From a virus (lineage: Duplodnaviria; Caudoviricetes): a stretch of DNA of 31,483 nucleotides. The DNA lies in IMG/VR virus record IMGVR_UViG_3300030104_002272, positions 1 to 31,483 of that record; one strand, written 5' to 3'. Under the pieces are notes generated by a model. The model was not told the origin of the DNA, made no database searches, and saw nothing but the letters and a program-made list of their open reading frames with translations. The position numbers and the translations under genes were made by a program. Positions 4,119 to 31,483 of the stretch are shown in pieces; position 1 is the stretch's first letter; every line of letters starts with the position of its first letter.

Positions 4119-4145
4119 CATTATAAATTTAAAAAACTATAAATT

Positions 4146-4304
4146 ATGAACAGAGAAATGTCATATACGACAAGAACATTTTACGTAAAGGCAGATAAAA
4201 TAGATACGCTGCTTGAGTTTCAAGAAAAATGCAGAAACAACGGGCGTAGATCTTACAGCGAGGTTTTATTAGAACTAATGGAAAACTATAATAAAACTAA
4301 CTAA
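4146..4304 (+). CDS. Ribbon-helix-helix DNA-binding protein, 52 aa (not in ORF track)
   Basis: MNREMSYTTRTFYVKADKIDTLLEFQEKCRNNGRRSYSEVLLELMENYNKTN*: alternating beta strand TRTFYV, helix A, G-x-x-S-x-S-E turn, helix B, as in the CopG/Arc fold. Confidence 0.72.
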   Translation: MNREMSYTTRTFYVKADKIDTLLEFQEKCRNNGRRSYSEVLLELMENYNKTN

Positions 4305-4305
4305 A

Positions 4306-4620
4306 ATGGAATCAAACTTTTTTTACAACACACATTTTGATTACATAGAACATTGGGAGAGATATGAAAGGCATAAAATATTATTTCAAAGATTAATTAA
4401 TATATTAACCCAAGCCAATTGGAATAAAAGAATAATACGAGTGCCACATTTTCAACTTACTAATAACGATTTAGAAATCCACAGAAATAGATTTACAAGA
4501 TATATTAAAACAATTGATATTATTGCTGAAGAAATGAAGCAGCTCAATGTTAATTATAATGAAAGCAGAATAAACAAAATAATAACTATATTAACTAAAA
4601 TCAAAAATTATGAAAATTAA
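4306..4620 (+). CDS. Hypothetical protein
   Basis: 104-aa ORF packed between neighbours. Confidence 0.6.
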   Translation: MESNFFYNTHFDYIEHWERYERHKILFQRLINILTQANWNKRIIRVPHFQLTNNDLEIHRNRFTRYIKTIDIIAEEMKQLNVNYNESRINKIITILTKIKNYEN

Positions 4621-5108: not shown

Positions 5109-5123
5109 ACTAAACTATATATT

Positions 5124-5858
5124 ATGAAAAAAGATCATTTAAGTTACAGCGCATTGTGCCAGTTTAAAAAATCACCTAACCATTTACTTGCGTATTGGAA
5201 CAAGGAAACTAAAACAACTGATGCAATGCACTTTGGACAGATAATACACAAGATGTTATTACAACCAGAATCCTTTAAAGATGACTTTGCTGTGTTTGAA
5301 GGCGCAAGGCGTGCAGGTAAAGCGTGGCAAGAGTTTAAAGCGGATCACGATGATAAAATTATTATCAAGCAGCAAGAGTTAGATGAGGCAAACAGAATTA
5401 TAAACAATTCAATGCAGCACGAAGCATTTGCAGAAATGTTAAAAAATGCAACAGCTAAAGAACAAAAGTTAAATTGGAATTACAAGGACGTTGATTTCAT
5501 TGGCTATGCTGATCTAATTACGGAGTTTAACGGCAAGCAATGCGTTGTAGATATAAAAACTACTAACGATGCAGGCAGCAGGTTCTACAGGGACTTATAT
5601 TACAACGATTATAAAATGCAGCTTGCAATGTACACAGAGCAGTTTGGTAAAGAGTACGATGCCTATATAGTAGCAATTGAAACAAGCACACCATTTAACG
5701 TACAAGTTTATAAATTAGATGAAAGTTTATTATTCAAAGGATGGATGGATTACGATCATAATGTAGATAAATACAATCAATGGGATGGTAAGCCACAAGG
5801 ATATAGTAACGCAGTAATTGAAGTTGCTACAGAAATAGAAGAAATTATTAACAAATAA
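5124..5858 (+). CDS. PD-(D/E)XK exonuclease (RecE/ExoVIII, DUF3799-like)
   Basis: HLSYSAL..F..SP, FGQIIH, GYADLI, VVDIKTT, YKMQLAMY. Confidence 0.85.
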   Translation: MKKDHLSYSALCQFKKSPNHLLAYWNKETKTTDAMHFGQIIHKMLLQPESFKDDFAVFEGARRAGKAWQEFKADHDDKIIIKQQELDEANRIINNSMQHEAFAEMLKNATAKEQKLNWNYKDVDFIGYADLITEFNGKQCVVDIKTTNDAGSRFYRDLYYNDYKMQLAMYTEQFGKEYDAYIVAIETSTPFNVQVYKLDESLLFKGWMDYDHNVDKYNQWDGKPQGYSNAVIEVATEIEEIINK

Positions 5859-6289: not shown

Positions 6290-6595
6290 ATGCGCTACAA
6301 AGACGAGGATTGGAATTTGATTTTACCTGCTATACAAGAATTGTTGATTGAGGGATATACATTGCCACAGATCGCAAATAAATTAGATATAACGTATAAT
6401 AAGGTAATACAAAACTACAAGCCAATAAAGAAAAACTTTAAGTACATTGATTACCAACAAAAACAAAGAAAGGTGGAGGCTGTAAACGCTTCTGCCTTTT
6501 CTTTTAATAAAGTTTACACTTGGGAATCATTAAGCGATGAAGATATAAAAGGATATAAATATTACGAATTAAAACACAAAGCATATTATGAATGA
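6290..6595 (+). CDS. Helix-turn-helix protein
   Basis: LLIEGYTLPQIANKLDITYNKV HTH pattern; ATG at 6290. Confidence 0.55.
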   Translation: MRYKDEDWNLILPAIQELLIEGYTLPQIANKLDITYNKVIQNYKPIKKNFKYIDYQQKQRKVEAVNASAFSFNKVYTWESLSDEDIKGYKYYELKHKAYYE

Positions 6596-7721
6596 TAAAA
6601 TTAAAAACAAAATAAAAAAAGAATTAGATAATTTAACATTTGATGAAAAAGTTAAATATATAAACGATGTAAAATTTTTTTTACATCAAAATAGTCCTTT
6701 TAAAAATGAACCTGTAGATTATGTTTCTTGGGTTAAATCTGAGGATGTAGTTTCAAATGATTACAACCCAAATAAAGTAGCACCACCAGAAATGGAGCTT
6801 TTAGAAGTTTCAATAATGAATGATGGTTATACTCAACCAATTGTTACTTGGGATAATCACGAAAAAAATAAAATTGAAGTCATTGATGGTTTTCATAGAA
6901 ATAGAGTTGGTAAAGAATCAAAAATTATAAATAAAAGAATTAATGGTTATTTACCTGTTGTTAACATAAGAAAAGAACAGTCAAATAAAAATGACAGAAT
7001 TGCCTCAACAATAAGACACAATAGAGCAAGAGGCAAACATCAGGTAAATGCAATGAGTGAAATAGTTATTGAATTAAAAAACAGGAACTGGACAAATAAA
7101 AGAATATCAAAACAATTAGGAATGGATGAAGAAGAAGTTTTAAGATTATGTCAAGTAAGTGGATTAGAGCATTTGTTTAATGACAAAGATTTTTCAAAAG
7201 CTTGGGAATCATCTGATTATATTGAAAATAATTACGAATTATTGACTGATGATGTAAGTGATGTTATTGATTTATATAAAATACCACTTGAAGATGATAA
7301 AGAAAGAATTTTTCACACTTACGATAAATGGGAATGTTATAAAGCTGGTTTTTATAAAAGTAAATTAGAAAACTTATCTCATGAAGATTGTGAAAAAAAG
7401 TTTATTGAAATAATGACAAATGAAAAATTATTTAGTAATGCTTTAAATAAAGTTATAAGTGAATGGAAATATAGCTGTGAACATTACCTAACAAATAAAG
7501 CAATGAATAGAATTGCTTGGTTAGGTCAAGCAGCAGTTTGTATATCTTCTGGTGTTCCTTCAAAATATTCTACTGCTTGGAGTAAATTAAATGTAGAAGA
7601 ACAAAACACAGCTAATAAAATAGCTGATAAGTATTTAAATATATGGTTAGATAAAAATAATTTATCAAAAGTAAATATAGAAGAGGGTTTAAATATTAAC
7701 AGACAAATTGAATTATATTAA
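6588..7721 (+). CDS. ibrB: ParB/sulfiredoxin-like protein of the IbrB/YbdM family, fused to an extra C-terminal domain
   Basis: NDYNPNKVAPPEMELL..SI..DGYTQPIV, IDGFHR, ASTIRHNRARGKH and an HTH, plus ~140 extra aa (IFHTYDKWECYKAGFY...NRIAWLGQAA). Confidence 0.85.
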   Translation: MNDKIKNKIKKELDNLTFDEKVKYINDVKFFLHQNSPFKNEPVDYVSWVKSEDVVSNDYNPNKVAPPEMELLEVSIMNDGYTQPIVTWDNHEKNKIEVIDGFHRNRVGKESKIINKRINGYLPVVNIRKEQSNKNDRIASTIRHNRARGKHQVNAMSEIVIELKNRNWTNKRISKQLGMDEEEVLRLCQVSGLEHLFNDKDFSKAWESSDYIENNYELLTDDVSDVIDLYKIPLEDDKERIFHTYDKWECYKAGFYKSKLENLSHEDCEKKFIEIMTNEKLFSNALNKVISEWKYSCEHYLTNKAMNRIAWLGQAAVCISSGVPSKYSTAWSKLNVEEQNTANKIADKYLNIWLDKNNLSKVNIEEGLNINRQIELY

Positions 7722-7723
7722 TT

Positions 7724-8932
7724 ATGACAACAAAATTTTACATAAATAAAAATGTTTTAGAAGCGTCAAAAGAAAGAATAACTAAAATTTTTAATGATTT
7801 TGAAAAACTCTATATAAGTTTTTCTGGTGGCAAAGATTCAACAGTTATGACACATTTAGTTTTAGAAGAAGCAAAAAAAAGAAATAAAAAGGTTGGATTA
7901 TTAATAATAGATTTAGAAGCTCAATATAAAAATACAATAGAACATATTGAAGAAATAATAGAAAAATACAAAGATAATATTGATTTACATTGGTTTTGTG
8001 GTGAGTTATTATTAAGAAATGCTGTTAGTGATTTTCAACCAAAATGGGTTTGTTGGGATAATGATAATAAAAATATTTGGGTAAGAGATAAACCAGATAA
8101 GGCAAGTGATTTATCTCAATATGATTTTTATGTTCCTAAAATGGAATTTGAAGAATTTATGGTTTTATTTGGCAAATGGTATGCTAAAGATAAATTAACC
8201 GCTGCGTTTATTGGAATAAGATCTGATGAAAGTTTACATAGATATAGAGCGATAACATCTAATAAAAAAAATCTTACACATAATAATTATAAATGGACTA
8301 CAAAATTAAGTAAAACCTTATTTAATGTTTACCCTATATATGATTGGAGAACTGAAGATATATGGATTTTTCATTCAAAATATAAAAATTTATGTCATAA
8401 TAAAATTTATGATTTAATGACAATGGCGGGTGTTAAACTAAGTAATCAAAGATTATGTCAGCCTTATGGTGATGACCAAAAAAGAGGATTGTGGTTGTAT
8501 CATATTTTAGAAAGCGACACTTGGTATAAGCTTTTAAATAGAGTTAGCGGTGTTAATAGTGGTTCACTATACATTAATGAAAAAGGTAATATTAATGGTT
8601 ATAATAATGTTACAAAACCAAATAATCACACTTGGGAAAGTTACTGTAATTATTTACTTAAATCATTACCAAATAAAATGCAAAGTCATTATAAAGAAAA
8701 ATTTAAAAAGTTTATAGTTGGGTGGAAAAAAAGAGGGTATAAAAAAATACCTGATGAAGCTCCTCATGATTTAGAAGTAAAATGTTGGGCTCCATCTTGG
8801 AAAAGAATGGTTAGATGCATTTTAAGAAACGATTACTATTGTAAAGGGTTAGGTCAAACACAACCTAAATCTGAAGCATACGAAAAATATAAATCAATTA
8901 AATACAAAAGAAAAATAGAATCTGAATTATGA
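7724..8932 (+). CDS. ibrA: PAPS-reductase-like PP-loop protein of the IbrA/YbdN (DUF3440) family
   Basis: SFSGGKDS PP-loop, GIRSDESLHR, YPIYDWRTEDIW, QRLCQPYGDDQ, PSWKRM..CILRNDY.CKGL. Confidence 0.88.
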   Translation: MTTKFYINKNVLEASKERITKIFNDFEKLYISFSGGKDSTVMTHLVLEEAKKRNKKVGLLIIDLEAQYKNTIEHIEEIIEKYKDNIDLHWFCGELLLRNAVSDFQPKWVCWDNDNKNIWVRDKPDKASDLSQYDFYVPKMEFEEFMVLFGKWYAKDKLTAAFIGIRSDESLHRYRAITSNKKNLTHNNYKWTTKLSKTLFNVYPIYDWRTEDIWIFHSKYKNLCHNKIYDLMTMAGVKLSNQRLCQPYGDDQKRGLWLYHILESDTWYKLLNRVSGVNSGSLYINEKGNINGYNNVTKPNNHTWESYCNYLLKSLPNKMQSHYKEKFKKFIVGWKKRGYKKIPDEAPHDLEVKCWAPSWKRMVRCILRNDYYCKGLGQTQPKSEAYEKYKSIKYKRKIESEL

Positions 8933-9249: not shown

Positions 9250-9260
9250 ACTAACAAACT

Positions 9261-9689
9261 ATGAAAGAATTCCCATACATTAAATTTAATGTTAATCAAT
9301 GGCTAACAGGAACTATTGCATTCCAAAAGTTAGATGTACAAGGCGCATATATGAAGGTATGTTGCTTTTATTGGTCTAAAGGATGTAATATACCAAGAGA
9401 ACATTTAAAATCTATTGTACCAGATTATTATAATATATTGCTTAAAACAAACTTAATTAAAGTTGTAGATGATAAAATTATTATTGAATGGTTAGATGAT
9501 ATGTATGAAGATAATTTAAAAAGATCTAAAATAAATGCAGCTAACGGAAGAAAAGGTGGCAAAGCCAAAGCGAACGCTACAAATTCGCCAAGCATAAAGA
9601 AAAGAGAAGAAAAGAAAAAAGAAGATAAATATGTAAATGATAATTTATTAAGAGTTGATAGTGAATTACAAAAACTATTGGACCAATGA
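9261..9689 (+). CDS. Replication initiator / replisome organizer (YdaU/DUF1376-like N-terminus)
   Basis: PYIKF...WL..T......QGAY......YW N-terminus, NGRKGG linker and a K/E-rich purine tract; directly upstream of the helicase. Confidence 0.7.
   Translation: MKEFPYIKFNVNQWLTGTIAFQKLDVQGAYMKVCCFYWSKGCNIPREHLKSIVPDYYNILLKTNLIKVVDDKIIIEWLDDMYEDNLKRSKINAANGRKGGKAKANATNSPSIKKREEKKKEDKYVNDNLLRVDSELQKLLDQ
9569..9630 (+). promoter_or_regulatory. Putative replication origin inside the initiator gene (copy A)
   Basis: AGCG-AA-CGCT dyad plus TTCGCCAAGCAT, followed by a strand-asymmetric NAAGA pentamer tract; 40/47 identical to 14307-14353. Confidence 0.55.
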
Positions 9690-11390: not shown

Positions 11391-11743
11391 TGTTAAACGC
11401 TAACCAAAAAGGAAAACGCTTTGAACTACGCATTGCAAAAGATCTTGCAAAGAAGTTTGATACCAATATAAGAAGAACACCAAATAGTGGGGGATTATCC
11501 ATTAAAGGGGATATACTAACAACAAGCGGAATACTATCAGAATACAGTTGGGAATGTAAGAACCAAGAGAAATTAAACATCTGGAAAGCACTACACCAAA
11601 GCGAAAGCGATGCAATAGGCACGTTAAAAACGCCTGTAGTGGTTTTCACAAAGAACCACGAAAATGATTACTGTGCATTAAGGTATGAAGATTTTATTAA
11701 TATATTATTAGAGCTTGATGAATTGCGCAATGAAAGCAAATGA
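11390..11743 (+). CDS. Holliday junction resolvase (Hjc-like PD-(D/E)XK)
   Basis: KGKRFELRIAKDL, RTPNSGG, GDI, WECKN. Confidence 0.8.
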   Translation: MLNANQKGKRFELRIAKDLAKKFDTNIRRTPNSGGLSIKGDILTTSGILSEYSWECKNQEKLNIWKALHQSESDAIGTLKTPVVVFTKNHENDYCALRYEDFINILLELDELRNESK

Positions 11744-12242
11744 TGTTTTGAATATATTACACAATCACCAACAAACGTGGTTATTAATTGCAGATCGTTT
11801 ACTGTATAGAGATGATGAACAAACCACACAAGACATAGTACAAGAAATGTATCTACAGATATATGATTTAATAGAAGATGAAAAACTACAACCACAGCAG
11901 ATAATAATAAACAACAAGCCACACTTTGGAATAGTAAAACGAATTATAGAACAATTAATACAACACCAAGCCAATAATGAAAACAGATTACCAAAGGATG
12001 ATAACTGTGTATTAAACAACATAGTACAGGATGAGGTAGAAAACGTGGAGGAGCTAACTACACTCATAGAAGAAATACTACAAGAAATGCATTGGTTTGA
12101 TAGGAAGCTATTCAAGCTATATGTAAAGAAGTTTAATAGTGTTAGATCATTGGCAAAGGAAACCAAGTTAGGACACGTAACAGTATATAACACAATAAAC
12201 AAATGCAGAAACAATATAAAAAAAAAGTTAAATGAAAAGTAA
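11730..12242 (+). CDS. ECF-type RNA polymerase sigma factor (probable late sigma)
   Basis: Region 2-like QDIVQEMYLQI and region 4 HTH WFDRKLFKLY...SVRSLAKETKLGHVTVYNTINK. Likely ATG at 11730. Confidence 0.78.
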   Translation: MKANDVLNILHNHQQTWLLIADRLLYRDDEQTTQDIVQEMYLQIYDLIEDEKLQPQQIIINNKPHFGIVKRIIEQLIQHQANNENRLPKDDNCVLNNIVQDEVENVEELTTLIEEILQEMHWFDRKLFKLYVKKFNSVRSLAKETKLGHVTVYNTINKCRNNIKKKLNEK

Positions 12243-14387: not shown

Positions 14388-14417
14388 GCATAACACTTGG
14401 CGTTTTTTTTTACATTA
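14388..14417 (+). promoter_or_regulatory. Putative late promoter 1
   Basis: GCATAACACTT-GG-CG-T9-ACATTA; 28/30 identical to 23550-23579; 9 nt upstream of ATG 14427. Confidence 0.72.
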
Positions 14418-14426
14418 TATATAACT

Positions 14427-15056
14427 ATGAAGATTAAAATAAACGTACCGGAATCACTAAACGAAATTACACTGAAGCAATACCAGAAATGGTTAAAGAT
14501 TTCAGAGGGTAAAGAAATGGATATGTTCTTACAACAAAAGATGATTGAGATATTTTGTAATGTACCATTAAAACAGGTTCTTGGAATTAAAGCAATTGAT
14601 ATTAATAACATATGTACTATGCTGCATAATATGTTTCAACAGAAACCTAAATTTAAAGATAGGTTTAAATACAATGATATTGAATTTGGTTTTATACCTA
14701 AATTGGATGATATTACATTTGGAGAATATGTTGATTTGGATAATTACCTTGGTGATTGGCAATTAATGGATAAAGCAATGAGCGTATTGTTTAGACCAAT
14801 AACACACACAAGAAAGAAAACATATTTAATAGAGGACTATATTAGTGCAGATACATACGATTTAAAAGATATTACACTTGATATTGTATTTGGTGCGCTT
14901 GTTTTTTTTTACAATTTAGGCAACGAGTTACAGAATCATATCCTGAAATATTTAGCAATGCAGGGGGAGGTGGACCTGTCTCAAGAGCAGAGAGTTTCAA
15001 TATTAAATGGGGTTGGTATCAATCCATCTATGGATTATGCAAAGGGGATATTATGA
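14427..15056 (+). CDS. Putative tail assembly chaperone (gpG-like, 209 aa, zero-frame product)
   Basis: Start MKIKINVP at 14427. Duplicated EITL.QY / DITFGEYVDL motif; contains the slippery run GTT TTT TTT TAC at 14901-14912. Confidence 0.65.
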   Translation: MKIKINVPESLNEITLKQYQKWLKISEGKEMDMFLQQKMIEIFCNVPLKQVLGIKAIDINNICTMLHNMFQQKPKFKDRFKYNDIEFGFIPKLDDITFGEYVDLDNYLGDWQLMDKAMSVLFRPITHTRKKTYLIEDYISADTYDLKDITLDIVFGALVFFYNLGNELQNHILKYLAMQGEVDLSQEQRVSILNGVGINPSMDYAKGIL

Positions 15057-23549: not shown

Positions 23550-23579
23550 GCATAACACTTAACGTTTTTTTTTACATTA
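23550..23579 (+). promoter_or_regulatory. Putative late promoter 2
   Basis: GCATAACACTT-AA-CG-T9-ACATTA, upstream of scaffold/MCP. Confidence 0.72.
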
Positions 23580-23600
23580 AGTATATATAATAATAAAATT

Positions 23601-24185
23601 ATGAAAGCAAACGAAATACTAAACAAAATCAAAAATATTGTTGGTGTTGAACTTTCTGAAACCAAAACAGAATTAGCTGAAATCGTACTTGAAAATGGTA
23701 CTGTACTTATTGCAGAATCGTTTGAAGCAGGAAAAGCAATCTTCATTAAAACAGAAGAAGAAGAAATTGCATTGCCTGTTGGTGAATACGAATACGAAGG
23801 TAAAGTTCTTGTTATTAAAGAAGAAGGTTTAATCGATAGTATTAAGGAAGCTGAAGCCGAGGCAGAAGCTGAAGAAGATGTGGAAGCTGAAGAAGTGGAA
23901 GCAAAAGAAGAAGTTCAATTTGTAAGTGTAGAACAATTTAATTCTACCATTGAAGAACTTAAAGCATTAATTACAGAGTTAAAAAGTGAAACTGAACTAT
24001 CTGAAGAAACTAAAGAAGAAACAGAAGAAGAAGTTGTTACTGAATTATCATCTGTAAAAGATGAATTGGTTGAACCAATTAAACATAATCCTGAAGAGGA
24101 TTCTAAAAACGTTCTTTTTACTATTGCAAGTAATAGAACTGAAACTACTAAAGATAGAGTATATAACAAAATATTTAATAATTAA
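23601..24185 (+). CDS. Capsid scaffolding protein
   Basis: Very acidic; LPVGEY, coiled coil, PIKHNPE; directly upstream of MCP. Confidence 0.7.
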   Translation: MKANEILNKIKNIVGVELSETKTELAEIVLENGTVLIAESFEAGKAIFIKTEEEEIALPVGEYEYEGKVLVIKEEGLIDSIKEAEAEAEAEEDVEAEEVEAKEEVQFVSVEQFNSTIEELKALITELKSETELSEETKEETEEEVVTELSSVKDELVEPIKHNPEEDSKNVLFTIASNRTETTKDRVYNKIFNN

Positions 24186-25148: not shown

Positions 25149-25174
25149 GGAGGGTTGTAATTACCCTCCTTTTT
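25149..25174 (+). terminator. Rho-independent terminator after MCP
   Basis: GGAGGGT-tgtaatt-ACCCTCC-TTTTT. Confidence 0.8.
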
Positions 25175-25186
25175 AAAACTTTAACA

Positions 25187-25735
25187 ATGGCTTGTGATTT
25201 AACAATTGGGCGTAAGGTACCTTGTAAAGATGTTGTTGGTGGTTTAGTTAGATGTTGGTTTGTAAACTTTGGTAGTTTAGGAACAGTAACAGAAACAAAC
25301 GATGAAATAACCGATCTTTCAGGAACATTTACAGCCTTTCAATACGAGCTAAAGGGTACAAACTCTTTAGATCAAACCATTACCTCATCAAGAGAGAATG
25401 GTACTACATTTGCAGAGCAAACATTAACTTTAACTTTTCCTAAAATGGAAAAAGAATTTCATAAGGAATTGAAGTTGATGGCTTACGGTAGACCTCACGT
25501 AATCGTAGAGGATAGAAACGGTAATTTCTTTCAGTGCGGTTTAGAACACGGAATGGAGATTACTACTATTGCTGCTGCATCTGGTACTGCAATGGGTGAT
25601 TTAAGCGGATACACATTAACATTAAGTGGTATGGAAACTGATCCTGCCAACTTTGTTAGTGGTGGTACATCTGCTGATCCTTATGCAGGAATGAGTTCAG
25701 CAACAGTTACTGTAACTGTAGGAACTAATAGCTAA
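25187..25735 (+). CDS. Major tail tube protein
   Basis: MACDLT.GR..PCKD.VGG, SRENGTTF..QTL.L, VEDRNG, GTAMGDLSGYTLT; between two terminators after MCP. Confidence 0.7.
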   Translation: MACDLTIGRKVPCKDVVGGLVRCWFVNFGSLGTVTETNDEITDLSGTFTAFQYELKGTNSLDQTITSSRENGTTFAEQTLTLTFPKMEKEFHKELKLMAYGRPHVIVEDRNGNFFQCGLEHGMEITTIAAASGTAMGDLSGYTLTLSGMETDPANFVSGGTSADPYAGMSSATVTVTVGTNS

Positions 25736-25812
25736 CATAATTCATAATTGTGTGATTCATAATATATAGTTTGATTGGTGGGGAGGAAGTAGTTAGCCTC
25801 CCCTTTTTTTTT
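25736..25812 (+). ncRNA. Candidate 3'-UTR-derived antisense sRNA against early-gene start regions
   Basis: Three CATAAT (anti-ATTATG) units. 25756-25772 is the exact reverse complement of 5112-5128 and matches 4134-4150 at 16/17. Ends in a strong terminator. Confidence 0.45.
25780..25812 (+). terminator. Rho-independent terminator after the tail tube gene
   Basis: GGGGAGG-aagtagttag-CCTCCCC-T9. Confidence 0.85.
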
Positions 25813-25828
25813 ATTATTTTGATACAAT

Positions 25829-26185
25829 ATGCAGATACTTACAACGACAGGAACAAGAGTAATAAATTTCATTCCACGCGAAACAATAAGCGGTGCAAAA
25901 ACATATCAATTAATTATCAAATCTGAAGCACAGAATAAAATTATTTTAACAGATAGTACAGCTACATTTGTAGAATTAGATTATTTTTACACTTATACAA
26001 CAACACAGGCTTTGGTAGAAAACAATTATTATACTATTACAATAACCAACACAACGGATAACACAATTATATTTAAAGATAAAATGTATTGCAGCGATCA
26101 AACGTTATCAGATTATGAAATTAGTAATGGTGTATACATAGAACAAAGCACAGGAGATAATCAATTTATATATTACAATGGATAA
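25829..26185 (+). CDS. Probable virion structural protein (head closure/Ig-like)
   Basis: 118 aa, Thr/Tyr-rich beta protein directly upstream of the portal. Confidence 0.45.
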   Translation: MQILTTTGTRVINFIPRETISGAKTYQLIIKSEAQNKIILTDSTATFVELDYFYTYTTTQALVENNYYTITITNTTDNTIIFKDKMYCSDQTLSDYEISNGVYIEQSTGDNQFIYYNG

Positions 26186-27977
26186 TTTACACTTAATACA
26201 ATTAGGACAATACGAACGCCCAACGGTGGTTGAGGAAAGAAACAAGGATTGGGTTGGTATTGGCGATAACAATGATTATTATCAATGCTTAATTGATGCT
26301 TATATGGATAGTACAACAAACAATGCTGTTATTAATGGTGTTGTTAACTGTATTTATGGTAAGGGGATTGATGCAACGGATTCAAGCAGAAAGCCAGAGC
26401 AATATGCACAAATGAGATCTTTATTAAAACCTAAAGATTTACGCAGGGTTTGCCAAGATTTAAAACTATTAGGCGAAGCATCTTTTCAAATTACATACAA
26501 TAAGGATAAGATAGCAAGCATAACACATTTCCCACGTGAAACATTACGAGCAGAAAAAATGGATGGTAAGGGTAACGTTAAGCATTATTACTATGCACCT
26601 GATTGGAGTGCGGTTACCAGAAACACAAAATTAAAAAAGTTTCCTGTATTTGGTAGCGGAGCGCAAAACGAAATTTATATAATTAAAAGATACGTAACAG
26701 GTTTCTACTATTATTCGCCTGCGGATTGGGGTACAAGCTACCCTACGTTGGAAAAGGAGATTGCAGATTATTTAATAAATGATGCACAATCATCTTTTAG
26801 TGGTACGAAGGTTATCAATTTTAACAATGGTGTACCAGATCGTGAGAAGCAATTAGCAATTAAAAACGATGTTTTAGGCAAGTTAACGGGCAGCTACGGA
26901 GAAAAGGTGATAGTAGCATTTAACAACAACGCAGAAAGCAAAACAACTGTTGAGGATGTGCCTTTAAATGATGCACCTGCACACTATGAATATTTATCTA
27001 CAGAATGCCAACGTAAGATACAAGTAATGCACCGCGTGACATCGCCATTATTAATTGGCTTACGTGATGGAAATAGTTCTCTTGGTAGCAATGCAGATGA
27101 AATTAAAAATGCAAATTTATTATTTAATAACGTTGTTATCCAACCGTATCAGAATTTGATAATTGATTCATTAGATGAAATATTTGCATACAATGATATT
27201 AGTTTAAATCTATATTTTAAAACACTTGAGCCGCTTGAATTTATGGATTTGGATGGTTTTGAAACTGAAGAACAAAGAGAAGAAGAAACAGGTGTTAAAA
27301 GCGAAGATACGGAACTTGAAATAATGGCTTCTAAACCATTAAAAGATGAAGATAGTGATAAACTATTACAAGATGCGTTAAACGTGCTTGAGGGCGAAGT
27401 AATTGATTCTGAAGAATGGGAATTGGTTGATGTTAGGGATGTAGATGATGAAAACCAAAGCGAAGAAGATTGGGCAGGCGATATGATACAACTTGCAGAA
27501 TCAGTAAAAAGTGATACACCAATAAAAAACAAACCATCTGGTGATTCAATGCTTGATAAAAGTTATTACAAAATAAGGTACAAGTATGCGGTTGGTAGCC
27601 GTAAATCGGGTGGTAAAAGTAGAATGTTTTGTGAGGAGATGATGAACAGAAGCAGAAGGGGTGTTGTATATAGAATTGAAGATATTGATAAAGCAAGCAG
27701 AGAAATGAATTTTAGTGCTGCAAAACTACCAATGCATAACGGGCAGAAATACGATCTATTTAAATTTAAGGGTGGTGTATACTGTAAACATAGATGGAAA
27801 CAAGTATTATATAAAATTAAAAACACGTATGATAAAGGCAGCAAGCAACTTGCTGATTATGATATAGTTAAGGAAATACCAAAAAGCTATAAGAGAAAAC
27901 CATCGGGTACAAAACAATCGGAGAAAGCTCCAATTAATATGCCTAATAGGGGACATCATCCTGCATATAAAAAATAA
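26178..27977 (+). CDS. Portal protein with an acidic linker and a MuF-like Cys/His C-terminal domain
   Basis: W...G.NNDYY..L, STTNNAVI, D.KL.GEA, LTGS.G, HRVTSPLLIG, VIQPYQ; tail has SRMFC and KGGVYCKHRW. Confidence 0.85.
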   Translation: MDNLHLIQLGQYERPTVVEERNKDWVGIGDNNDYYQCLIDAYMDSTTNNAVINGVVNCIYGKGIDATDSSRKPEQYAQMRSLLKPKDLRRVCQDLKLLGEASFQITYNKDKIASITHFPRETLRAEKMDGKGNVKHYYYAPDWSAVTRNTKLKKFPVFGSGAQNEIYIIKRYVTGFYYYSPADWGTSYPTLEKEIADYLINDAQSSFSGTKVINFNNGVPDREKQLAIKNDVLGKLTGSYGEKVIVAFNNNAESKTTVEDVPLNDAPAHYEYLSTECQRKIQVMHRVTSPLLIGLRDGNSSLGSNADEIKNANLLFNNVVIQPYQNLIIDSLDEIFAYNDISLNLYFKTLEPLEFMDLDGFETEEQREEETGVKSEDTELEIMASKPLKDEDSDKLLQDALNVLEGEVIDSEEWELVDVRDVDDENQSEEDWAGDMIQLAESVKSDTPIKNKPSGDSMLDKSYYKIRYKYAVGSRKSGGKSRMFCEEMMNRSRRGVVYRIEDIDKASREMNFSAAKLPMHNGQKYDLFKFKGGVYCKHRWKQVLYKIKNTYDKGSKQLADYDIVKEIPKSYKRKPSGTKQSEKAPINMPNRGHHPAYKK

Positions 27978-29494: not shown

Positions 29495-31483
29495 ATGAGT
29501 ACAAAATACATAGCAAGCAACTGGAGATTACCTAATCAAGAGAATAGTAGTAAAAACGATAACTATGGTTTAGATTTTAATGGGAGTAATGAGTTCATAA
29601 ATATTGGAATAACTCCAAATTCATTAGTTGGTAACAATAATGCTTACACTGTATCTGCTTGGGTAAATCCTGACATTAGTGGAAATTTAAATATAATTGG
29701 TGCTATGGACACAAGCAACAGATGGTATTTTAGGGTGTTAAATGGTTATGCCTCCTATGCTTATGGAACAGCAACAGGTGATAATGGTTACAATACAGAA
29801 GCAGCAACTGAAGTTAGTTTAAATGTTTGGTCAAATATTGTTTTTACATTTGATGGTTCAACTACTCATAAAATTTATATCAATGGAGATTTAAAATTAA
29901 CACAATCATCTGGAAGTGGACAAACTGTAACAAGCACAAGAAATTTATATATAGGAGCTTTAAATAATAATGGAAGCACTCAAAACTATATGAATGGCTC
30001 TATTTCAGAACTTGCAGTTTTTAACTACGCTTTAACATCTACACAAATAAGCACTTTATACGGAAGCAGTTCTTTGGGTTCTGGTAATCCTATGGCTTTA
30101 AAACCTCAACCAGTAGCTTACTATCCTTTAGGCGATAATAGTGCTTCTAATCCACTAACACAACCAAACGTAGCTGTAGAAGATGCAACTGTTTTTGATT
30201 TTGATGGAAGTAATGATTATGTAAACTTAAACACCACTTTAAGTTCATTGGGCGTTACAACTTCTTTTAGTATTTCTACTTGGGTTAATATTTCTACGCT
30301 TGGCATTTATGACACTGTAATTGGTGCACCTGCTGCTTATGGTACTTGGAACGATGGTTTTGGTTTAATGGTTTACAACAATGCTTTATATTTTTGGGTT
30401 GAGGATTGGAATGACGCAAACCATTTTGTTCAAACCGCCACTTTAAACACAAGCCAATGGTATCATATAGTATGCACATTTAGCACTTCAAATGGATTAA
30501 AAATTTACGTTGATTCTGGCACACCAACAACAGCTTCAAATACTGAAATAGGAACATTAACTTTTCCAATGTTTATTGGGAGTACGGGAACAAACACCAC
30601 TTACGTATTTAATGGCGAAATCAGCAACACTCAAATTTGGAATACAGAGCTTTCTGCTTCAGATGTTACTACACTCTACAATTCAGGAGTTCCTTTATAC
30701 ACAGGAACACAACCTCAAGCAGCTAACTTAAAATCTTGGTATAAACTAAACAACACAGCAAACTGGGAAGCAGATAGTTCAGGCAATTGGCAAATACCAG
30801 AAGCTACTTCAGCATATCCACAGAGCTTTGATTTTGATGAGAGTGATGACTTTATAGATTTAGGAACAACAACTGATTATGATACTGGTGACCTTTCTGC
30901 GTCTATTTGGGTTAATGCGTCAAGTTTAAGAACAATTACAGGATATGCTTTTAGCAACTCTGGCTCTACCTCAATTGCTGGTTTTGATATTAAAGTAAAA
31001 ACTAATGAACAGGTAAACGTCAGCAGAATTACAACAACTAAAAGCTGTGGAACTGGTTGGTTAAGTATAGGGTTTATTGATGATGCTTGGCAACATTTAG
31101 CATTTACATATAATGAGTCAACAAATACTATAAAACTATTTTTAAATGGAGTACTTAAAGACACATCAACAGGAACTACACAAACAAATATTGCAAGTAA
31201 AAAGTTAACTATAGGTTCATATAAAGGCACATTAAATTTTTGGAAAGGTCAACTTTCTAATGCGCAGATATGGAATACAACATTATTAGATACAGATATT
31301 GAAACACTATACAACAACGGAAGCCCACTAACAACAGCAATAGCAAGTTCTAATTTAAAAGCGTGGTATAAACTTGATAATTCTGCAACATTCTCAACTA
31401 ATTGGAGTATTCCAGATGCTTCAGGAAATGGCAACACTGGAACAAGTTCCGGAATGACAGAACAAAACTTAGTAAACAACAAT
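29495..31483 (+). CDS. Multi-LamG tail fibre/adhesin, runs off the 3' end (not in ORF track)
   Basis: MSTKYIASNWRLPNQ...; 663 open codons with three LamG domains (YTVSAWVN, FSISTWVN, LSASIWVN). The last 65 codons match bases 1-195 in frame. Confidence 0.88.
   Translation, partial: MSTKYIASNWRLPNQENSSKNDNYGLDFNGSNEFINIGITPNSLVGNNNAYTVSAWVNPDISGNLNIIGAMDTSNRWYFRVLNGYASYAYGTATGDNGYNTEAATEVSLNVWSNIVFTFDGSTTHKIYINGDLKLTQSSGSGQTVTSTRNLYIGALNNNGSTQNYMNGSISELAVFNYALTSTQISTLYGSSSLGSGNPMALKPQPVAYYPLGDNSASNPLTQPNVAVEDATVFDFDGSNDYVNLNTTLSSLGVTTSFSISTWVNISTLGIYDTVIGAPAAYGTWNDGFGLMVYNNALYFWVEDWNDANHFVQTATLNTSQWYHIVCTFSTSNGLKIYVDSGTPTTASNTEIGTLTFPMFIGSTGTNTTYVFNGEISNTQIWNTELSASDVTTLYNSGVPLYTGTQPQAANLKSWYKLNNTANWEADSSGNWQIPEATSAYPQSFDFDESDDFIDLGTTTDYDTGDLSASIWVNASSLRTITGYAFSNSGSTSIAGFDIKVKTNEQVNVSRITTTKSCGTGWLSIGFIDDAWQHLAFTYNESTNTIKLFLNGVLKDTSTGTTQTNIASKKLTIGSYKGTLNFWKGQLSNAQIWNTTLLDTDIETLYNNGSPLTTAIASSNLKAWYKLDNSATFSTNWSIPDASGNGNTGTSSGMTEQNLVNNN
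31289..31483 (+). repeat. Imperfect direct repeat, copy 2 (copy 1 at 1-195)
   Basis: 179/195 identical to the window start. Confidence 0.95.

Follow-up and report, generated by a model that had tools for sequence, protein, structure and literature searches.

The 80 nt that follow the stop codon of the tail-tube gene of this phage make up a conserved element whose predicted fold has three parts: a weak hairpin at the 5' end, a linker left open and a terminator. The linker is complementary to the start region of the phage exonuclease gene. On balance, we favour the view that the late capsid-tube transcript, or a 3' fragment of it, blocks translation of the exonuclease in trans, an interpretation drawn from sequence comparisons and predicted folds. 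The window that we analysed is the whole virus record G000, with 31,483 nt (31.5 kb) and an estimated completeness of 83%.

All recognisable genes of the window lie on the + strand. Lysis genes come first, followed by an early block coding for an RHH-like protein, a 124-aa protein, the exonuclease, a ParB-like protein, a primosomal-like initiator, a helicase, a resolvase and a sigma-like protein (11715-12242). The later part holds the terminase, tape measure, protease, probable capsid, tail-tube, 118-aa and portal genes. The exonuclease (5124..5858, +; 244 aa) is a RecE/ExoVIII-like PD-(D/E)XK enzyme (PF12684, E 9e-26; phrog_412, exonuclease VIII, E 1.6e-38). The RHH label comes from a single Atlas match at 0.91, with no Pfam match above the cut-off, and PHROG and Pfam-type profile searches yielded no family name for the 124-aa protein, the putative annealase of the preliminary description. 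The early block also harbours a ParB-like and PAPS-reductase-like gene pair (6588-8932; PHROG labels), which we take to be possibly a DNA-modification module. Near-identical stretches are found at the two window ends (10-179 and 31298-31467), with exact runs of 46, 38, 17 and 16 nt in tail-fibre-like ORFs; they represent either a repeated domain or overlapping contig ends.

The tail-tube ORF (25187..25735, +; 182 aa; stop codon TAA at 25733-25735), the parent of the UTR, belongs to phrog_19091, of unknown function in PHROG. For an AlphaFold model of tube alignment A2, whose first row is a relative at 71% identity, the best fold matches were phage tail-tube/Hcp-type proteins, with a best E of 2.3e-3 and no match below E 1e-3; the tube label is thus backed by the fold, and weakly by the E-value. 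A two-part late-promoter-like element (TAACAC...TTACATTA) occurs twice in the window. The copy at 14391-14429 sits a few bases 5' of the ATG at 14427. The other (23553..23603, +) lies before the gene that itself precedes the probable capsid gene. A 17-nt repeat is common to both copies, and the second is the likely start of the transcript ending in the UTR. As a second terminator-like hairpin (25149-25175) lies between the probable capsid and tube genes, the tube would also need read-through. The only cultured-phage relatives of the tube are those of the Nonlabens phages P12024L/S, at 38% identity, and the host is therefore probably a marine flavobacterium. The UTR motif is absent from P12024L, the closest cultured phage found (38% tube identity). 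In that phage, a gene annotated on the minus strand separates the tube terminator from the late gene that follows (L330:2750-2980).

The preliminary description had noted three CATAAT units, at 25736, 25743 and 25758, and on re-reading of the sequence these and all its other coordinates proved right. The first two units are contained in P1 (25735..25753, +), a weak 5' hairpin of 8 bp with a CAT loop, and only the third is kept across the clade in an alignment of 51 UTR versions, which shows a conserved core with variable flanks. The GUGU of the P1 3' strand is nearly invariant in the clade, and a hairpin on that strand folds in all 23 unique 5' segments, with different 5' strands and a mean z of -2.4 (3 rows without GTGT were excluded). 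Pairing is kept in 93% of the cells, and the changes, mostly of AU/GU type on the 5' side with one pair altered on both sides, fit P1 acting as RNA rather than DNA. Support for P1 comes from per-sequence folds and an investigator-specified structure; RNAalifold on a MAFFT alignment predicted the terminator alone. When the full UTR of the window is folded, P1 competes with a fold that uses the linker, and its pair probability is 0.11-0.31.

The anti-start linker (25750..25779, +) comprises a conserved core (25750-25771) and a 17-nt seed (25756-25772) with an opening cost of ~2-3 kcal/mol. It is followed by an intrinsic-terminator-like hairpin (25780..25812, +) of 7 bp, 6 of them G-C, with a 9-U tail. 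This hairpin escaped a simple terminator scan, its loop being 10 nt long against a scan maximum of 8, and it is backed by its fold and by covariation, with both sides altered at 7 of 8 consensus pairs. Like a 3'-UTR-derived sRNA, the element lies between a stop codon and the intrinsic terminator that it shares with its parent transcript.

The main predicted target is the exonuclease leader with the first codons (5112..5128, +; ATG at 5124). As previously proposed, and as re-read here, positions 25756-25772 are the exact reverse complement of this region, and the duplex spans -12 to +5 of the exonuclease start. The target is 20.6 kb from the UTR, on the same strand. No inverted match in the window is longer than this 17-mer; the next non-palindromic one has 14 nt. 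When the 44-nt UTR was shuffled 2000 times with its dinucleotides kept, a single shuffle gave a match of 17 nt (mean 11.1). On the opposite strand the UTR looks like a start region, and real start regions therefore served as a stricter null: compared with the other starts of the genome that they come from, 23 of 1566 have a match of 17 nt and 70 of 1566 one of 14 nt. Once opening energies are counted, the exonuclease start takes first place among 47 starts, at -15.4 kcal/mol, followed by the RHH (-8.4), portal (-7.7) and initiator (-5.4) starts, and the top score of the window is matched by none of 40 shuffles. With plain RNAduplex, which carries no opening costs, the best score of the window is reached by 19 of 100 shuffles.

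A version of the core is present in the 23 closest of the 69 tube relatives examined, and the remaining relatives are devoid of it. A pattern scan covering 47 of 64 parts of the viral contigs identified at least 119 loci, and 112 of the 119 listed are flanked by homologues of the tube and of the next gene. The median length from stop codon to hairpin is 48 nt in 85 unique motif UTRs, versus 22 nt in 86 non-motif UTRs. The element is single-copy and conserved across one phage clade. Outside the tube UTRs, a UTR sequence profile gave three opposite-strand matches at exonuclease starts (E 0.018-0.3), plus a few weak matches. The same profile had no match in 800 kb from two Flavobacteriaceae genomes, a small sample, and on this basis a general host feature was rejected.

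Several relatives (L090, L103, L106, L157 and others) have tubes with ~57% identity to that of the window and UTRs nearly identical to those of relatives at 73-80%. The capsid, tube and exonuclease trees, which are FastTree sketches with only a quick version for the capsid, disagree with one another, a sign that modules are often exchanged while the UTR between them stays stable. The early module of the motif clade differs from that of its sister phages. In many of the latter (L047-L069, L447-L516), the terminator is preceded by a short TTCATTT(T)GAT tail, anti-AUG in form, for which a consistent target of their own was not found.

We then compared the pairing across 59 related phage records, with gene starts from a simple in-house caller that makes some miscalls. 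The leaders are AT-rich and repetitive, a caveat that applies to all helix counts. The seed is conserved and predicted to be accessible, and its target site is conserved as well: in 21 of the 26 motif-clade genomes with a called exonuclease, the exonuclease start pairs over at least 11 nt; in the five exceptions (G004, G006, G030, G279 and G061), the pairing is reduced to 6-8 nt. In G004 and G006 the core is unchanged and the exonuclease leaders are unmatched. The longest Watson-Crick helix falls at the exonuclease start in 18 of the 26 genomes, 14 of them without a tie. When the window linker was compared with 47 unique exonuclease start regions, collected by likeness to the window's protein, 34 matched over at least 11 nt and 20 over at least 15 nt.

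Covariation of the UTR with the exonuclease leaders of relatives, envisaged in the preliminary description, was indeed observed in types F and C2, where pairing to the exonuclease start is kept with altered letters. The linker and the exonuclease leader are both rewritten in G036 (type F), and a 15-nt match is still present. Type C UTRs have two modules. The exonuclease leader of subtype C1 pairs with the second; subtype C2 has a different leader, which pairs over 14 nt with one of the two modules. Types F and C2 sit in different parts of the exonuclease tree, and no further type F or E genomes with an exonuclease were found. When the UTR types, 7 in number, were permuted, p was 0.006 for the exonuclease, 0.03 for the portal and 0.04 for the annealase, and 0.06 for the initiator with 8 types; the RHH, helicase, scaffold, capsid, terminase and tape measure genes had p values of 0.5-0.99. 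The exonuclease value is optimistic, as the UTR types are related and about two changes look independent. The best scores of types C and F go modestly beyond those of shuffles (reached by 1-3 of 40, opening costs included), and that of G030 does not.

The exonuclease start regions of the window and G003 are identical over 26 nt, at 50% protein identity. In mean identity, the exonuclease leaders exceed those of some other genes by little, and they stand out only in the share of identical 12-mers at low protein identity. More generally, 86 of 115 ATG-centred helices of at least 10 nt fall on called starts, against 1455 starts among 22225 ATGs. In a set of 25 genomes, which are related and so give counts that are not independent, helices of at least 11 nt occur at 40 of 461 starts in the early block and at 8 of 643 in the late block, in keeping with the proposed bias of the anti-start UTR to early genes. 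Part of the element is also found apart from the exonuclease. G281-G283 retain GTGTGATTCA, and no exonuclease of the RecE/ExoVIII-like family was detected there; G284 (78% complete) has neither the motif nor a detectable exonuclease. The exact complement of the invariant GTGTGATTCA part is not found at the start of any called phage gene, and the type A2 phosphoesterase start comes within one bulge of it.

Of the idea of a multi-target off-switch acting on the early genes, the pairing with the exonuclease start was supported, and the list of other targets had to be narrowed. The 16/17 match at the RHH-like start region (4134..4150, +) exists in the window, but this gene did not prove to be a conserved target: among 45 unique start regions there is no pairing of 11 nt or more with the window linker, and the permutation gave p=0.58. 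The pairings proposed for the annealase (4599-4614) and initiator (9250-9262) starts likewise exist but are imperfect, with about -0.2 kcal/mol after opening for the former; with the window linker, at least 11 nt are reached in 0 of 28 annealase and 3 of 51 initiator regions. Both pair well in some lineages only, the initiator in type C and the annealase in G001 and G036, and the first module of the type C UTR matches the initiator start over 11-14 nt in several type C genomes. The top partner of the type G UTR is the upstream region of a late gene that overlaps a promoter-like element, probably by chance.

The portal start region (26157..26192, +; ATG at 26178), which overlaps the end of the 118-aa gene and does not figure in the preliminary description, is a secondary candidate target. 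It ranks 2 of 47 by RNAduplex in the window and third with opening costs, and it takes rank 1 in G016, at -14.1 kcal/mol with opening costs included. G285 (L638:2925-3016), a complete genome in which no exonuclease of the RecE/ExoVIII-like family was found, has the anti-AUG CAT changed to CGT, which still wobble-pairs with AUG, and its longest helix is with the portal. A promoter-like element after the tube terminator is present in none of 85 unique motif UTRs versus 69 of 86 non-motif UTRs (12 are without it, several by parsing, and 5 had no ORF called), which makes the portal genes of the motif clade likely dependent on read-through. Positions 25813-25828 of the window, between the tube terminator and the 118-aa gene, hold no such element, and most sister phages (e.g. 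L024-L069) have one. The motif, the promoter loss and the exonuclease co-occur as one clade-level event and cannot be told apart.

Pairing between the UTR and an early transcript is symmetric, and the helix alone does not tell which RNA is controlled. The element might act on the late side, either in cis, where on read-through transcripts the linker would pair with the portal start 400 nt 3' of it, or through binding of the exonuclease mRNA to the linker, altering termination or decay of premature late RNA. In many genomes of types A and B the portal start does rank 1-3, as it does in G004 and G285, which have no exonuclease match; 38 of the 53 recurrent portal differences counted are compatible with G-U pairing, and the genes behind the promoter-less motif UTRs are probably reached by read-through. 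Nevertheless, the portal leader is constrained as the coding end of the 118-aa gene, which confounds the portal covariation test, and ribosomes translating there would melt the duplex. Moreover, types C, F and G show poor pairing with the portal, the window itself has a weak one when opening costs are counted, and no anti-terminator fold was seen among the UTR folds. Control of the late side appears rather unlikely to us. Alternatively, the element could be a protein-binding, processing or stabilizing site at the mRNA end, its complementarity being the relic of an inverted copy or a by-product of U-rich tails and A-rich leaders. Conservation of the GUGUGAUU part with no phage target would fit such a site, as would the U-rich tails of the sister phages; the length variants of the linker, for their part, are explained by AT-repeat slippage. 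Decay would be expected of a relic, but the linker still matches the exonuclease leader at 50% protein identity and after the rewriting in G036, and composition does not explain the repeated matching of one gene among ~45. Furthermore, none of 89 terminator-like host 3' ends exceeds 13 nt against ~350 host starts. We regard this explanation as unlikely.

The minus strand of the stretch does resemble a Bacteroidota start region with an ATG, and the RHH start of the window has its 16/17 match just downstream of a promoter-like AT-rich region. The stretch could accordingly be the leader of a minus-strand micro-ORF (MNHT...), as the preliminary description had allowed for, or a DNA operator for the RHH-like protein. 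Both ideas are highly improbable and were largely refuted by the lack of a conserved frame and by the non-conserved RHH site: the antisense ORF varies from 5 to 54 aa, neither its start nor its frame is conserved, types C and G have no ATG there, and the G-U-type changes in P1 favour RNA. A role of the UTR as a late promoter was also rejected, its spacing being 3 nt off that of the window's promoter-like elements and its upstream half not being conserved.

A further possibility is that the main target is a host mRNA, for which the best candidate is that of rpsF (bS6). Its AUG AAU CAU start complements the invariant GUGAUUCAU, and a decrease in bS6/bS18 would alter ribosome supply. The proteins bS6, bS18 and bS21 are described as hiding the anti-SD in Bacteroidia ribosomes (PMC13000457; PMC7797042). 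The lead came from an exact 18-mer scan of 185,579 genomes, which returned 20 matches across many phyla, one of them at the rpsF start of Mesonia sediminis, with a 24-bp duplex. The rpsF product starts with M-N-H in 22 of 31 Flavobacteriaceae, and for the window UTR rpsF comes second among 352 host starts in one genome slice and first among 341 in another, both slices chosen to contain it, using RNAduplex without accessibility. Against this, the idea itself arose from the Mesonia match. A search with 3 mismatches in 401 genomes of the family gave no match with fewer than 2 mismatches among the matches listed (150 of 166), and the type F UTR ranks rpsF only 143-148. We consider rpsF very unlikely to be the main target. 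Both targets might be combined in a two-sided switch, in which the linker would silence the phage exonuclease and the invariant GUGAUUCA would pair with the first codons of host rpsF, cutting bS6/bS18, as one case of phylum-wide anti-start mRNA tails in Bacteroidota phages; this broader scheme is quite doubtful.

Under the reading that we favour, with the exonuclease silenced in trans, the transcript from the promoter-like element at 23553 would end mostly at 25812. It is presumably late and abundant, and the active species could be the whole mRNA tail or a processed fragment. Late in infection, the linker would pair in trans with the exonuclease leader and AUG; the resulting 14-21 bp duplex over the A-rich leader would stop 30S loading and may invite RNase III. 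The purpose might be to keep a DNA-end-resecting exonuclease off the ends cut by terminase during packaging, and extra targets would differ by lineage, among them the initiator, annealase and portal. Initiation in Bacteroidia is reported to use adenines at -3, -6, -12 and -13 together with low structure (PMC13000457), and Bacteroides is described as having no Hfq or ProQ homologue (PMC7366714). A search for RNA runs yielded five entries, with shares of at most 0.22. Two runs, read as assembled contigs, contained only pieces of relatives; one contig of run X2 touches the capsid, tube and UTR and 241 letters more, and such contigs cannot show RNA ends or levels.

If this is true, a small phage would use the untranslated end of its major structural mRNA as a timer, turning an early recombination enzyme off with no repressor protein. 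Late genes would then act back on early ones through RNA, in a marine phage group that is abundant and whose hosts start translation without Shine-Dalgarno pairing. The 80-nt element is directly testable, as its target is named and compensatory pairs exist in nature (types A, C2 and F); it could also serve as the basis of a simple design for synthetic repressors in Bacteroidota.

The seeds of 3'-UTR-derived sRNAs are usually shorter than the 14-21 bp pairing of the UTR element, and the C4 antisense RNA acts from an immunity region by controlling an antirepressor. Our literature search, which drew on main texts, few of them from subscription journals, found no paper on anti-start 3' UTRs in Bacteroidota phages. 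Within the same phylum, GibS and FopS of Bacteroides thetaiotaomicron repress initiation by pairing at start regions, and the UTR has in common with them a single-stranded seed across the start codon region (PMC7366714, PMC11697453). Unlike the UTR, which is a phage mRNA tail with an internal seed and a predicted target that is mainly a phage gene, these are described as cellular RNAs with their own promoters and 5' seeds, established by experiment. MalH (PMC8081044) is one of the enterobacterial 3'-UTR-derived sRNAs. Like RNAs of that class, the UTR lies between the stop codon and the intrinsic terminator of its parent, is ~80 nt long and has its seed just 5' of the terminator. The likeness to this class concerns position and seed. 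As with C4 of phages P1 and P7, a phage RNA would regulate another phage gene by pairing (PMC8201110). The UTR, by contrast, ends a structural transcript and points back at an early recombination gene. Rfam covariance models gave three chance-level matches in the window, none of them over 25736-25812, and no C4 or GibS-like match. The 3' UTR of icaR in Staphylococcus aureus also has a motif complementary to a translation start region and blocks initiation, but it pairs with its own leader (PMC3868564). In contrast, the starts of the likely parent transcript rank low here by RNAduplex (scaffold 18, capsid 45 and tube 37 of 47), with permutation p values of 0.65-0.88 for scaffold and capsid. PreS and OOP of lambda and VpdS of a Vibrio phage are phage-encoded RNAs acting by pairing as well (10.1101/2024.10.31.621285). 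However, OOP is antisense to the cII-O mRNA, whereas the predicted target of the UTR is a distant gene on its own strand; PreS, which was found with Hfq, has mainly host mRNAs as its targets, and that source describes none of the three as a late structural 3' UTR. The element is real and conserved, and it would work like a 3'-UTR-derived, start-blocking sRNA rather than like an icaR-type UTR, a cis-antisense RNA or a member of an Rfam family.
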